Shown one piece after another: positions 1-6,919 of a stretch of DNA of 15,352 nt. The notes under the pieces were generated by a model. It saw nothing but the letters and a program-made list of their open reading frames with translations. It was not told where the DNA came from and made no database searches. Source of the stretch: a virus (taxonomy: Duplodnaviria; Heunggongvirae; Uroviricota; Caudoviricetes); the IMG/VR virus record IMGVR_UViG_2558860274_000010, positions 1 to 15,352 of that record; one strand, 5' to 3'. The translations under genes and the position numbers were made by a program. Each line of letters starts with the position of its first letter. Position 1 is the stretch's first letter.

Positions 1-485
1 TTTGTTTTACCTCATTACAGATTTAAGGGTGAACAAATCCCTGCCATTGCTGGCATATAAGAATGAAACCGGATATTTATTACGGAACTGTTTTAAAGAC
101 CTGCCGGGATTTCGTTATTATCCTGGTGAATAACTTTATCGACCGGGTAACAGTTACCGGGAATTTTCTGTTCGGTTGCTGCAGTCACACACTCCTGCAT
201 TGTCCTGTGAACACTGACTGCAATATCAACTGGCTCTCCGGAAACAAGAAAAACTGTCAGAACAAGTGCAAATGCTGTATTCATTGCCAGCATCCTTTTT
301 GTATCGGACGTAAACGGGCCAGCATTGAAAGAATGCATATTTTATTTAATAACTCCCGTTCGTGTTTTCTCTTGTTAATGGCATCTTCAGTAAATACAGG
401 GTTACTGATAGTGACACCAATTTCAAAACAACCTTCAGACGTATTAACGTTTGGTAATAACGTTTCCATTATCGCGTCCTCAACA

Positions 486-794
486 ATGAATTTTGTGATG
501 CGATGCCTGGTGCCTCCAGGTGACGTTAACCAGTTAACAATTAACGCCGGATACAGAGAATGCATGACGTGTGGTAATCAGGCAGATGATCCGCATCACA
601 TCATTGGTCATGGACTGGGAGGGATGGGAACAAAGGCTGATGATTTGTTTGTTATTCCGCTGTGCCGTAAATGCCATAGCGAACTACACGCCGGGGTAAA
701 AGATTTTGAAGAAAAACACGGCAGCCAGCTGTTGTTGCTGATTCGTTTTTTAATGCACGCGAGAAATTCGGGTGTCCTGAAGTGGAAAGCATGA
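486..794 (+). CDS. nin-region Cys/His-rich zinc-binding protein (DUF1364/YbcO-like); start uncertain
   Basis: The C-terminal ~100 aa of the 63..794 frame carry a CxxC...HH...CxxCH pattern (CMTCGNQADDPHHIIGHG...CRKCHSELHAG) like small proteins found just upstream of rusA in lambdoid prophages. The stop codon abuts the rusA ATG (TGA 792-794, ATG 795). The frame is open back to 63, but the upstream part is Cys/Asn-rich and unprotein-like; ATG 486 or 495 are plausible starts. Confidence 0.45.
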   Translation: MNFVMRCLVPPGDVNQLTINAGYRECMTCGNQADDPHHIIGHGLGGMGTKADDLFVIPLCRKCHSELHAGVKDFEEKHGSQLLLLIRFLMHARNSGVLKWKA

Positions 795-1160
795 ATGACT
801 GAACGCATAGAATTTGTTTTGCCTTACCCGCCAACGGTGAACACTTACTGGCGACGTCGTGGCAGCACATATTTTGTATCAAAAGCCGGTGAGCGTTATC
901 GCCGTGATGTGGCGCTTATTGTTCGCCAGCAGCGGCTGAAATTAAACCTGTCCGGAAGGCTGGAGATAAAGATTATTGCAGAGCCACCGGATAAACGTCG
1001 TCGTGACCTGGACAATATCCTGAAAGCACCACTGGATGCGCTGACGCATGCCGGACTTCTCATAGACGACGAGCAGTTTGATGAAATCAATATTGTGCGC
1101 GGTCAGCGCGTTCCTGGGGGACGGCTGGGCGTGAAGATTTACAAAATTGAGAGTGAGTGA
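795..1160 (+). CDS. rusA: Holliday junction resolvase RusA
   Basis: 121-aa ORF with clear similarity to E. coli RusA as recalled, including the PDKRRRDLDN region, length ~120 aa and a C-terminal GGRL motif. Translationally coupled to the upstream ORF. Confidence 0.85.
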   Translation: MTERIEFVLPYPPTVNTYWRRRGSTYFVSKAGERYRRDVALIVRQQRLKLNLSGRLEIKIIAEPPDKRRRDLDNILKAPLDALTHAGLLIDDEQFDEINIVRGQRVPGGRLGVKIYKIESE

Positions 1161-1168
1161 TCGTAAAT

Positions 1169-1711
1169 ATGATATACCCGGAAATTACAGGCAAAAGCGG
1201 CGAGCATTTACGTCTAAAAACGCTGGAAGCCGTCTGGATCCAGGGGAAATTACGGATGTGGGGGCGTTGGTCGTATATAGGTGGTGGCAAACCAGGAAAT
1301 ATGTTCAATCAGTTGCTGGCATCCAAAAAACTGACAAAAACCGCAATCAATGAAGCCCTGCGTAGAATCAGGGAGTCAGGGATTGATAAACCAGAGCTGG
1401 AAGCATTCTTGCGAGAGATGATCGCTGGCAGACAGAAGAGCTGGTTGTCTCACTGTACTGATGCAGAGGCGTTACGCATTGATGGGGTGATAAGTAAAGC
1501 GCTTGCACGTTATCCTGGATTGATTGATATCCTGCGGCAAAGGTACGAAGGGCGGGGGATGAGTAAACGCAAAATGGCTGAATTGTTGAATGAGGTGCAC
1601 CCGGAATGGTGTTTTAGTACATGCGAAAAGCGAATTGCTAATTGGTTGGCTGTTGCTGAATATGCGCTATACATCCCTATGCGAGAATCGTTTGCTCAAA
1701 AAATGTCTTGA
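1169..1711 (+). CDS. putative late-gene antiterminator (Q-like)
   Basis: 180-aa ORF (ATG 1169; the track's 1157 start is GTG) placed between rusA and a strong intrinsic terminator, followed by late-region genes. This is the canonical lambdoid Q position; identity rests on synteny, not on a recognised motif. Confidence 0.5.
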   Translation: MIYPEITGKSGEHLRLKTLEAVWIQGKLRMWGRWSYIGGGKPGNMFNQLLASKKLTKTAINEALRRIRESGIDKPELEAFLREMIAGRQKSWLSHCTDAEALRIDGVISKALARYPGLIDILRQRYEGRGMSKRKMAELLNEVHPEWCFSTCEKRIANWLAVAEYALYIPMRESFAQKMS

Positions 1712-3389: not shown

Positions 3390-3465
3390 GGCCCTTTAGC
3401 TCAGTGGTGAGAGCGAGCGACTCATAATCGCCAGGTCGCTGGTTCAAATCCAGCAAGGGCCACCA
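3390..3465 (+). tRNA. ileZ: tRNA with anticodon CAT (Ile2/lysidine type or Met; ileZ-like)
   Basis: Manual cloverleaf: acceptor GGCCCTT/AAGGGCC, D-arm GCTC/GAGC, anticodon loop CTCATAA, T-arm GCTGG-TTCAAAT-CCAGC, encoded CCA at 3463-3465. Confidence 0.85.
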
Positions 3466-3472
3466 TCACATA

Positions 3473-3549
3473 CCGCCATTAGCTCATCGGCAGAGAGCGT
3501 CAGCTTTCGAAACTGGCTGTGTGGGGCCCGGGTCCCCGATGGCAATCCA
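3473..3549 (+). tRNA. argN: atypical tRNA-Arg-like, anticodon TCG (argN-like)
   Basis: Manual fold: D-arm GCTC/GAGC, anticodon loop TTTCGAA with U33 and A37, encoded CCA at 3547-3549. Irregularities: two C-A mismatches at the acceptor end, one mismatch closing the anticodon stem, and a non-canonical T-loop CCCGGGT. Confidence 0.5.
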
Positions 3550-3562
3550 TTATCTGCATTAT

Positions 3563-3639
3563 GCGTTGTTAGCTCAGCCGGACAGAGCAATTGCCTTCTA
3601 AGCAATCGGTCACTGGTTCGAATCCAGTACAACGCGCCA
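3563..3639 (+). tRNA. argO: tRNA-Arg, anticodon TCT (argO-like)
   Basis: Manual cloverleaf: perfect acceptor GCGTTGT/ACAACGC, anticodon stem ATTGC/GCAAT with loop CTTCTAA, T-arm with TTCGAAT loop, encoded CCA at 3637-3639. Confidence 0.85.
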
Positions 3640-4103: not shown

Positions 4104-4494
4104 ATACATATCTGGATTATCACCTGTTACGGTAAAAAGTGATTGCTTACTGTTTTTGTGAATGGCATTGCAGCAGCCGGATAATGTCAGTGCTGGCTGA
4201 CGGTGTGCTGGTGGCGGGTGTGGTGGTTGTTGCTTTCCCGTTGCTGAAAAAGAAAACGCCAGACTGTTAGCCGGGTATCAGTTAGCGGGAGAAATTTTTA
4301 AATACTTCACAATTCAGGCGGTTGACTGTTGTCTGGTTTGCGGGGAGTTTGTTAAAAGAAACTGGCATGGTGAATCCCCCTGTGCGGTGGGGCAATCAGC
4401 GAGTAGGTATATGGGATAATCGCGGATTCAGGTGCTGGTACTGAATTCACCGGGAGGCACCCGGCACCATGCAATGGCACATAGCGCCACTCTC

Positions 4495-4524
4495 CAGCCC
4501 CTCTCCGGAGGGGCTGTTTATATT
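4495..4524 (+). terminator. intrinsic terminator-like hairpin
   Basis: 9-bp stem CAGCCCCTC/GAGGGGCTG with loop TCCG, followed by a T-rich tract (TTTATATTGATTTT) on the + strand. Lies immediately 3' of the stop of the minus-strand ORF 4518..4886. Confidence 0.4.
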
Positions 4525-4886
4525 GATTTTGTCAGATGTGAGTAAACTCCTGATGGACTTTGTTGTTTTAGTCCATAAGGACATATTTGCAGAGTGCAAC
4601 GGTTATTAAAGCATTCATTCAATACGTTATCTGTATTTGTAGGGCATTCCTGGCTGTTTTTGATTAAATTCCAGAATGTTTTATTGAATGGTACTACGTT
4701 GTAAATGGTTACAGGTAGCACTTTGTTATTGAGCATGATGCCTGTGTGAGTCAGTGTAAATATACTTTCAGGAGGTAAGAAAGCATCCGATTGATACCAG
4801 ATTATTAATTTTATTTTACTCCATATGACTGAAAAAGATATTCCGCATGATGGCTGGATAACTGTATCAATCACAATCCACTTCAT
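4518..4886 (-). CDS. hypothetical protein (122 aa), AT-rich cargo gene
   Basis: Minus-strand ORF with a good ribosome-binding site (AAGGAAAGTAA then ATG). Low GC compared with the flanks; no recognisable family or signal peptide. Confidence 0.4.
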
Positions 4887-5186
4887 TTACTTTCCTTGTT
4901 TATGCCTTGCTGGTGATGTTCTGAAAAGTATAAATGATATTTTTGAATTAAACCATAGAGCAGAATTATTTTTCTGATGTTGTTTATTGTTTATTTAAAT
5001 ACAGGGTGGTTTATATCTCGTCTTGTAGTTTATCCATGCATATCTGCTTGATAATCAGGTTTTTATTTAAGGTATGGTTTTGTGTTTTTTCTGTATAGAC
5101 TGGCCCCCTGAATCTCCAGACAACCAATATCACTTAAATAAGTGATAGTCTTAATACTAGTTTTTAGACTAGTCATTGGAGAACAG

Positions 5187-5552
5187 ATGATTGATGTCTT
5201 AGGGCCGGAGAAACGCAGACGGCGTACCACACAGGAAAAGATCGCAATTATTCAGCAGAGCTTTGAACCGGGGATGACGGTCTCCCTCGTTGCCCGGCAA
5301 CATGGTGTAGCAGCCAGCCAGTTATTTCTCTGGCGTAAGCAATACCAGGAAGGAAGTCTTACTGCTGTCGCCGCCGGAGAACAGGTTGTTCCTGCCTCTG
5401 AACTTGCTGCCGCCATGAAGCAGATTAAAGAACTCCAGCGCCTGCTCGGCAAGAAAACGATGGAAAATGAACTCCTCAAAGAAGCCGTTGAATATGGACG
5501 GGCAAAAAAGTGGATAGCGCACGCGCCCTTATTGCCCGGGGATGGGGAGTAA
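5187..5552 (+). CDS. insC: IS2 transposase OrfA (InsC)
   Basis: 121 aa beginning [21 protein letters not shown]..., preceded by GGAGAACAG. Matches IS2 InsC as recalled. Confidence 0.85.
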
Positions 5553-5722
5553 GCTTAGTCAGCCGTTGTCTCCGGGTGTCGCGTGCGCAGTTGCACGTCA
5601 TTCTCAGACGAACCGATGACTGGATGGATGGCCGCCGCAGTCGTCACACTGATGATACGGATGTGCTTCTCCGTATACACCATGTTATCGGAGAGCTGCC
5701 CACGTATGGTTATCGTCGGGTA
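5510..5722 (+). pseudogene. insD: IS2 orfB (insD) 5' fragment, truncated after codon 71
   Basis: [30 protein letters not shown]...PTYGYRRV matches the InsD N-terminus. The expected continuation is replaced from 5723 by unrelated sequence in the same frame. Confidence 0.7.
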
Positions 5723-6919
5723 CAGAAGAACCCGAAAAATGTGTTGCTGGCGGTGTGCTGGATGCAGGGAGAGTTTGACATGAGCGCCGCCACCCACGCA
5801 CAGCAACCTGCGCTGTTTACAGCCATGCTGACACAGTTTCGTGCTGACCTCTCCGTGTTTAACGCGCAGTGCCATGGTGGCAGTGCTGCAGATGTGCCGT
5901 GGATTTGTGGTGACACGACGTATTACTGGAAAAATACATACGCTACCCAGTACGACACCGTGTACGGCGGGTATAAAAACAGGGAGAGTGAGGGCGTTTA
6001 TTTTGTGCCCTTCATGACAGACGGTAACGGCGTCAATACCGCCACTAACGCGCCGGCAGAAGATCCGGATATTCCGGCATCAGGATATTACGGTGCGGCA
6101 TCGAGAACGAATGGAAACCAGGTATCATCAAACCGCCCGACACATTTCAGTTCATGGGCGCGCAGGAGCATTATTCCGGATCGTCTGGCAACCGCTATTC
6201 TGAACGCAGCCGGGCGCACCTCAGCCTTCATCAGTGGTAAGGCACCGGAAATCAAACCCTCGCCCGGCGGCAACACGCCATCGGGTCCGTCTGCAGATAC
6301 GTCCGTTCGCACAATCTCCCTGCTGCCGGCAGCCGGAGAGGCTGCTGCGCAGGGCTGGAGCATTAAGGATGGCGGAATTCAGTTGTCAGATGGTGTATTT
6401 AAGATCACCAAGCAGAGCAATAAAACCTGGTCCCTGACGCATCCGGTGGATGACGCAATTACCCTGCTGACACAGGGCGGCAGACTGACCTGTAAGTTCC
6501 GCCTGTCAGGCGCACTGACCAACAATCAGTTCGGGCTGGGGATTTATCTGTATACGGATGCTCCCGTTCCTGATGGTGTGGCGATGACGGGTACCGGTAA
6601 TCCGTTCCTGATGTCGTACTTCACTCAGACCACTGACGGCAGAGTGAATCTGATGCATCACAGGAAAGCCGGAAACACGAAGCTGGGGGAGTTCGGCGAT
6701 TACGGTAACGACTGGCAGACGCTGGAGCTGGTGTTCACCGCCGGCAGTGCCACGGTTACTCCGAAACTGAATGGAGTGGCTGGCCCGGCATTCCAGGTTA
6801 TAAAAGACGGTCTGACACTGGGACTGAATGCGCTGACGCTGACGGATGTTACAAAAAATGCAGCGTATGGCGTTGAGATAGAAAGTCTGGTGCTGGAGAT
6901 AAATGCACCGGCAGCATAA
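5723..6919 (+). pseudogene. 3' portion of a prophage nanS-p/YjhS-family sialate O-acetylesterase gene, 5'-truncated and fused in frame to the IS2 orfB stub
   Basis: Translation from 5723 ([19 protein letters not shown]...[12 protein letters not shown]...YGGYKN...[20 protein letters not shown]...[14 protein letters not shown]) parallels the C-terminal half of E. coli NanS/YjhS as recalled, followed by a ~250-aa extension. The N-terminal part of the gene is absent. The position between the tRNAs and the holin matches where Stx phages carry nanS-p. Confidence 0.6.

Follow-up and report, generated by a model that had tools for sequence, protein, structure and literature searches.

The left edge of the window (the whole stretch of viral DNA analyzed here, 15,352 nucleotides) very likely represents, at positions 63-565, the distal end of a dicBF operon of the Qin prophage type, with dicB and ydfD on the minus strand, which abuts the scar of a ~5.3-kb deletion; the long forward open reading frame (ORF) that covers the same region is a by-product (Table 1). 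These are known genes beside a deletion scar, that is, an ordinary finding of a kind already known. The identities of the genes, the position of the breakpoint, the set of lost genes and the lack of support for the N-terminal part of the forward frame are all established in this analysis. The original prediction described the coding strand of this region as ambiguous. Its doubts about the forward frame and its suspicion of coding on the reverse strand were justified, but both mechanisms that it proposed are wrong in detail. The ORFs on which it was based are all found in the ORF list, namely, a 243-aa forward ORF (63..794) and two reverse ORFs, of 81 aa (93..338) and 94 aa (281..565), that overlap by 58 bp at 281-338 in different frames.

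Table 1. Features at the left edge of the window (window coordinates)
Feature	Position	Strand	Remarks
ydfD (lysis protein YdfD, DUF1482)	93..284	-	63 aa, intact
dicB (cell-division inhibitor DicB)	281..469	-	62 aa, intact
dicB leader remnant, 92 nt	470..561	-	identical to intact loci up to T561
Putative deletion junction, 3-bp microhomology AAT	559..561		within imperfect CAGA[G]AAT common to both parents
Chimeric 243-codon ORF	63..794	+	antisense of ydfD/dicB/leader (63-560) fused in frame to DUF968 tail
DUF968 / phrog_96 HNH-endonuclease 3' remnant	561..794	+	last 77 codons of 351-aa gene
rusA (Holliday-junction resolvase)	795..1160	+	Pfam RusA E = 3e-16; annotated RusA in matching genomes
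DUF1133 / Q-like antiterminator gene	1169..1711	+	Pfam DUF1133 E = 6.4e-103; homologue L002 6615-7157

Reverse-strand genes dicB and ydfD

In a megablast search of 5,426 complete E. coli genomes, window positions 1-561/564 match the ydfD-dicB segment of Qin-like prophages with 99.8-100% identity, and 4,041 of these genomes contain a region that covers 80% or more of window 1-600. Each of the two reverse ORFs contains a complete protein of a separate, well defined family. Residues 33-94 of the 94-aa ORF match the Pfam DicB family (PF05358) over profile positions 1-62 of 62 (E = 5.5e-37, 125.7 bits with a cut-off of 27) and the NCBIfam family NF049927, also over positions 1-62 of 62 (3e-39, 132.7 bits, cut-off 100), and both the DNA of this gene and the encoded protein are identical to the annotated dicB WP_000449192.1. 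Residues 22-79 of the 81-aa ORF match DUF1482 (PF07358) over profile positions 1-57 of 57 (E = 7.8e-25, 87 bits, cut-off 25); the respective protein covers positions 1-63 of 63 of phrog_1092, and its DNA is 100% identical to a locus with the annotated ydfD WP_001090200.1. The hydrophobic, signal-like segment MNTAFALVLTVFLVSG that was pointed out in the original prediction is indeed present and is the N-terminus of YdfD.

The start codons of both genes are internal to the reverse ORFs. The dicB ATG is preceded, 7 nt upstream, by the Shine-Dalgarno (SD) sequence GAGGA and the ydfD ATG, 8 nt upstream, by AAGGA; no SD was found before the furthest-upstream reverse ATGs at 565 and 338. With these starts, the TGA stop codon of dicB overlaps the ATG of ydfD in the 4-bp sequence ATGA at 281-284, and the apparent 58-bp overlap is there only because each ORF had been extended to the furthest ATG. 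The same layout, with dicB directly upstream of ydfD and overlapping stop and start codons, is annotated in homologous loci. In particular, the annotated parent locus L001, in which the strand corresponds to the window minus strand, carries dicB at 6281-6469 and ydfD at 6093-6284. Thousands of E. coli genomes carry separate annotations for the two genes, as do all six divergent loci that were fetched, in one of which (L008) dicB is flagged as frameshifted. According to published work, dicB and ydfD share one operon and overlap partly, and YdfD of K-12 is a 63-aa lysis protein that targets IspG (PMC8835842).

The two reverse ORFs in different frames, with their 58-bp overlap, had been taken in the original prediction to suggest, as one of two alternatives, a single reverse gene broken by a frameshift near 281-338. 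This reading is extremely improbable given that both halves are complete and match separate families from end to end, that the true starts are the internal ATGs with good SD sequences, which reduces the overlap to the 4-bp ATGA, and that annotations of thousands of genomes and published work agree on the two-gene layout; the full-length family matches on their own can be regarded as already refuting it. Thus, the region consists of two complete genes rather than of one damaged gene.

The codon-usage comparison by frame that was suggested in the original prediction also favors the reverse strand: the minus frames score +0.23 bits per codon (over ydfD, where the forward frame scores -0.01) and +0.16 bits per codon, compared to about 0 for the forward frame over 96-469. 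The ratio of synonymous to non-synonymous differences for ydfD is 33:45 when read on the minus strand vs 14:64 in the forward frame. For dicB, the ratios on the two strands, 19:43 and 19:37, do not discriminate between them, and the minus-strand call over this gene rests on the family matches and on published experiments. DicB of K-12 is a 62-aa division inhibitor that depends on MinC and also blocks ManYZ-dependent phage entry (PMC10448788). By analogy with the K-12 proteins, inhibition of cell division by the window DicB and lysis activity of the window YdfD are putative functions.

The window begins exactly at a gene boundary (L001 6000-6001), its first base directly following the start codon of an upstream recE-like exonuclease gene (L001 CDS 3529-6000, minus strand). 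A terminator-like hairpin downstream of ydfD (55-42) was considered as well and rejected, its stability being no greater than that of shuffled sequence (z = -0.07).

The forward frame and the DUF968 remnant

The forward 243-codon ORF is judged to be no gene; it is an accidental antisense shadow frame. As stated in the original prediction, its beginning is rich in Cys and Asn (8.4% and 10.2%, respectively, in the first 167 codons) and bears no resemblance to the C-terminal domain: no Pfam, NCBIfam or PHROG family was matched by the N-terminal part, and the DUF968 match of the ORF is confined to residues 165-235. Over ydfD, the forward frame is codon-aligned antisense, such that the nine forward Cys codons are complements of the YdfD codons GCA (Ala, 6) and ACA (Thr, 3), and the nine Asn codons are complements of GTT (Val, 6) and ATT (Ile, 3). 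The Cys/Asn richness is thus there because the forward codons complement Ala, Thr, Val and Ile codons of YdfD, which fully accounts for the unusual composition.

The length of the open frame has a similarly simple explanation. None of 20,000 plain base shuffles keep the forward frame open, and 7.8% of the synonymous re-codings of DicB and YdfD do so; given these two proteins, a shadow ORF of this kind is unremarkable. In the intact parent, the forward frame is already open for 201 codons (L001 6063-6668), and in other homologues, including those of the K-12 type, it stops at codon 28, 71 or 104. The 243-codon ORF would have arisen because this stop-free antisense frame was placed in frame with the DUF968 tail by the deletion.

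The original prediction held that a full-length forward protein with conserved N-terminal residues would settle the matter in favor of the forward gene; the homology searches found no such protein. Among ~5.8 billion proteins, the 167 N-terminal residues have 14 matches (76-100% identity, 105-200 aa), and all those with a named source are E. coli "hypothetical proteins" antisense to dicB-ydfD. None of the seven N-terminal homologue sequences that were read continues into the DUF968 tail, and the exact-product look-up returned no record of the 243-aa product.

It is very improbable that the forward ORF is nevertheless a real, expressed chimeric gene for a protein with a Cys-rich N-terminus and an HNH zinc-finger tail. 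In favor of such a gene are the open frame with an ATG start, the in-frame fusion that retains the entire CxxC...HH...CxxCH motif and the ATG of rusA immediately 3' of the stop codon; if real, it would encode a new fusion protein, possibly passing ribosomes into rusA by translational coupling. However, ATG 63 is not preceded by an SD sequence, the opposite strand carries two experimentally characterized genes with positive codon scores, the look-alikes of the N-terminal part are variable in length and are antisense ORFs of E. coli only, and the frame is interrupted by stop codons in homologous loci; together with the composition explained by YdfD codons and a product that has no record, these observations argue for the shadow frame.

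The C-terminal part of the forward ORF derives from a different gene. Window positions 554-1200 are 99.8% identical, in the megablast search of complete E. coli genomes, to a segment that comprises the 3' end of a DUF968 gene and, downstream of it, rusA and the Q-like DUF1133 gene. Residues 167-243 of the forward ORF show 100% amino acid identity to residues 275-351 of the 351-aa protein WP_001369253.1, and nothing upstream of these residues aligns. Accordingly placed is the Pfam match, in which residues 165-235 align to DUF968 (PF06147; E = 1.1e-30) over profile positions 99-169 of 171 only; in the full-length protein, the domain occupies residues 160-343. The tail further aligns to positions 262-334 of 334 in phrog_96 (HNH endonuclease), other HNH families of PHROG are matched as well, and there is a weak match to HNHc_6 (E = 9.5e-07). 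The metal-finger motif CxxC...HH...CxxCH is retained in the form CMTCG...HHIIGH...CRKCHSELH. The annotated parent DUF968 gene, which encodes 351 aa, is located at 5185-6240 in locus L002, and no solved structures related to DUF968 by sequence were found. Compared to the DUF968/phrog_96 family of lambdoid nin regions (YdfU-like proteins), the window sequence shares the position directly upstream of rusA, which starts straight after the DUF968 stop codon, as well as the identical last 77 residues of WP_001369253.1, but lacks 274 of the 351 residues and 98 of the 171 Pfam profile positions. What is found in the window is therefore a part of the domain in place of a complete DUF968 domain in a ~350-aa protein, and the remnant was filed as truncated rather than as a member gene. 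It appears to be a pseudogene fragment.

A forward gene starting near 486, the other mechanism put forward in the original prediction, does not agree with these alignments: identity to DUF968 begins only at 559-564, the 5' part of the gene is deleted, and ATG 486 itself is located in DNA derived from the dicB leader. A related alternative is that the remnant yields a shortened forward protein, of 102 aa from ATG 486 or of 76 aa from ATG 564, which would be a small stand-alone HNH protein. The retained metal-finger motif is compatible with this, as are the calling of the 76-aa product as a gene in 86 collection blocks where DUF968 is split, the existence of a corresponding 71-aa PHROG family, and a weak promoter-like site at 534-561 on the plus strand that agrees with the consensus at 9 of 12 positions. 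We nevertheless consider such a protein unlikely. Only the aforementioned part of the Pfam profile remains of a domain that occupies residues 160-343 of the full protein, there is no convincing SD before either ATG, the 102-aa protein has no record in the exact-product look-up, the native rightward promoter is deleted, and promoter-like sites on the plus strand are no more frequent than in shuffled sequence, that is, at chance level in the consensus scan. Furthermore, the 76-aa "genes" elsewhere are gene-caller fragments of DUF968 genes that are frameshifted or split by an insertion sequence (IS). The reading of the tail as a fragment of a pseudogene thus remains the preferred one.

In public genomes, DUF968 is often split (loci L011-L018), by a frameshift or, in L013, by insertion of an IS21-family element, and such splits lead gene-calling programs to report the same 76-aa tail as a protein in its own right. 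The 71-aa phrog_23141 family appears to be built from such DUF968 tails. Among the places that were read, none has dicB beside the 76-aa product.

The probable deletion junction and its counterparts in other prophages

Three-way alignments delimit the boundary between the two blocks: identity to the dicB-side parent extends through T561, and identity to the DUF968-side parent starts at A559. There is no IS element at this junction. In the intact prophage of E. coli 10205, the two blocks are separated by ~5.3 kb and have the order and orientation seen in the window; the gene order is ydfD, dicB, ydfB/ydfA, repressor, cro, ydaT, replication genes, DUF977, hokD, DUF968, rusA and Q. The simplest reading of the junction appears to be an internal deletion by illegitimate recombination. 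Under this scenario, recombination across the 3-bp microhomology at 559-561 would have removed ~5.3 kb, bringing a point 92 bp upstream of dicB next to codon 275 of the DUF968/HNH-endonuclease gene, which is followed by rusA and Q. The lost segment would have carried dicF, ydfA/ydfB (ydfABC), the promoter dicBp, the dicA-type repressor, cro/dicC and ydaT as well as the replication genes, hokD and codons 1-274 of DUF968. The long forward ORF would then be a by-product of the same event, in which the stop-free antisense frame of ydfD/dicB became joined in frame to the DUF968 tail.

Among the known systems, the closest in organization is the dicBF operon of the cryptic prophage Qin of K-12, ydfABC-dicF-dicB-ydfDE, which is controlled by DicA/DicC. 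The window shares with it the dicB/ydfD order, the 4-bp overlap and the protein families, with ~96% DNA identity to a K-12 derivative. In contrast to the Qin operon, that of the window is beheaded, lacking dicBp, ydfABC, dicF, dicA and dicC, and only 92 nt of leader remain before the dicB start codon. Both window blocks are present, in the same order and orientation, in intact lambdoid prophages of enterohemorrhagic and enteropathogenic strains (EHEC/EPEC; for example, E. coli 10205, NZ_CP074987.1, 2655000-2666500) and in PPompW-type phages; the intact EHEC/EPEC-type prophages are ~96% identical to the window on the dicB side and 99.7% identical on the DUF968 side. Unlike the window, these prophages contain, between the two blocks, ~5.3 kb of DNA with the immunity region, the replication genes, hokD and a complete DUF968 gene of 351 aa.

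In the intact locus L001, the DicF RNA is located 83 bp beyond the breakpoint, and a search of the window for DicF (RF00039) yielded no match at the gathering score or at E <= 1. Upstream of position 561, the DUF968 tail, rusA and Q are found in place of dicBp, ydfABC and the DicA/DicC regulators. Transcription of the dicBF operon starts at dicBp, on the upstream side of ydfA, and a 2023 study detected no further promoter within the operon (PMC10448788). Given that dicBp is gone and no internal promoter has been reported, dicB and ydfD are probably promoterless and largely silent in the window. This assessment follows from the loss of the known promoter together with a consensus promoter scan that found no minus-strand site upstream of dicB, which is weak evidence. 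The joint loss of the promoter and the repressor is in keeping with the toxicity of DicB and DicF, both of which would be derepressed if DicA were lost on its own. Likewise, without the replication genes and the region of the early rightward promoter, both of which are deleted, the DUF968 tail, rusA and Q would have lost their normal transcription. We infer that the prophage is immobile and non-inducible. A minus-strand match to the small RNA STnc100 at 506-555 is attributable to chance (16.9 bits vs a gathering score of 47, E = 0.54).

The exact 559-561 junction rests on this one sequence. In the megablast searches, none of the 5,426 complete E. coli genomes reaches 80% coverage of window 1-1200 or of 440-680, such that no single genome contains both blocks joined in this manner, and the junction has no match in phages. 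A 28-mer spanning the junction is absent from the GTDB representative genomes, IMG/VR and the JGI metagenomes, and a 20-mer has no true match in the GTDB representatives or the metagenomes. Three 20-mer matches (L033-L035) were rejected as chance hits that have nothing else in common with the window. The absence of the junction from every other sequence searched, along with the fact that the second junction of the window (~13737) is likewise spanned by none of the 5,426 complete E. coli genomes, could be taken to indicate an assembly or chimera artefact instead of a biological deletion. We regard this as decidedly unlikely. A 3-bp exact overlap is far too short for an assembler to join; the order and orientation of the blocks are what a simple deletion within a single prophage would produce; the presence of whole IS elements in the window makes a short-read contig unlikely; and comparable natural deletions of the immunity region, with ends within ~20 bp, are found in other genomes, including a complete chromosome.

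The natural deletions comparable to that of the window were identified in two assemblies (GCA_964007095.1 and GCA_964206515.1; loci L031 and L032) and in E. coli Ec-042-T20-MAC (L036), the last of which is the complete chromosome. As in the window, dicB and ydfD have been retained and dicF, the repressor and cro lost, and the left breakpoint lies within ~20 bp of that of the window: in window-equivalent coordinates, the left ends are at 559-561 in the window, at ~573 in L031/L032 (L031 5060-5100) and at ~553 in L036 (L036 5260-5290). All these ends lie between dicF and dicB, in a cluster 84-104 bp upstream of the latter. Unlike in the window, where the right breakpoint is in DUF968, ~5.3 kb away, the right breakpoint in these genomes is inside ydaT, at an end shared by L031/L032 and L036 (CTA|TCCGG), so that the dicB leader is fused to a ydaT remnant, the replication genes are kept, and the deletion amounts to ~2.2 kb by coordinate arithmetic on L001.

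At least two, and possibly three, independent deletions therefore end in 553-573, namely, those of the window, of L031/L032 and of L036, although the last could derive from an L031-like scar through a 17-bp slippage between ATA repeats. The clustering could reflect a hotspot, selection or chance. That deletions which drop the immunity region and dicF while keeping a promoterless dicB-ydfD pair preferentially break in this 20-bp segment, or are selected for ending there, is a tentative idea that we consider improbable. If true, it would imply either a local recombination hotspot or selection that retains these two toxin/anti-phage genes in decaying prophages.

Decay of the prophage and implications for annotation

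The remainder of the window is a decayed lambdoid prophage. A second scar is located at ~13737 (context 12900-14400), where identity to YlcI/YnfO and a truncated small terminase subunit ends and is directly followed by the region downstream of tccP (13784-14374, minus strand, with EspF repeats) and then by espJ (14699-15352, minus strand). Elsewhere, tail-fibre and tail genes flank this TccP, so the whole morphogenesis module is missing here. Two other sites in the window involve IS elements. An IS2-like orfA (5142-5552) and the beginning of orfB lead into an ORF of 469 codons (5510-6919), and a DUF6645 domain makes up the C-terminal part of this ORF; the 5142-6919 region looks like an IS2 fragment fused to a truncated SASA/DUF6645 gene. 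In the late region, a complete IS66-family element (8261-10594), with tnpA (133 aa), tnpB (115 aa) and tnpC (512 aa), interrupts the homology with the closest prophages.

Several other recognizable genes are present in the window. These include a DNA methyltransferase gene with two tRNAs downstream of it (3390-3639), namely, tRNA-Met(CAT), annotated as tRNA-Ile in the homologous locus, and tRNA-Arg(TCT); a full-length STnc100 small RNA on the plus strand (4336-4525, 130.5 bits) that abuts a minus-strand iraM/PmrD-like ORF (4518-4886); the lysozyme and Rz genes; and, just past the lysis genes, a homologue of PerC/Pch-type transcriptional activators (12512-12826; Pfam PerC, E = 3.8e-44).

The present observations do not touch an open question and are of value mainly for annotation. 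A stop-free antisense frame, when fused to a real domain, can mimic a 243-aa gene, and ORF calling from the furthest ATG makes a 4-bp gene overlap look like a 58-bp frameshift. With respect to the biology of the element itself, the window represents a prophage without immunity, replication and morphogenesis modules that retains dicB, ydfD, rusA, Q, the lysis genes and the effector cargo (tccP and espJ), and such loss of modules with retention of cargo is a familiar pattern of prophage decay.
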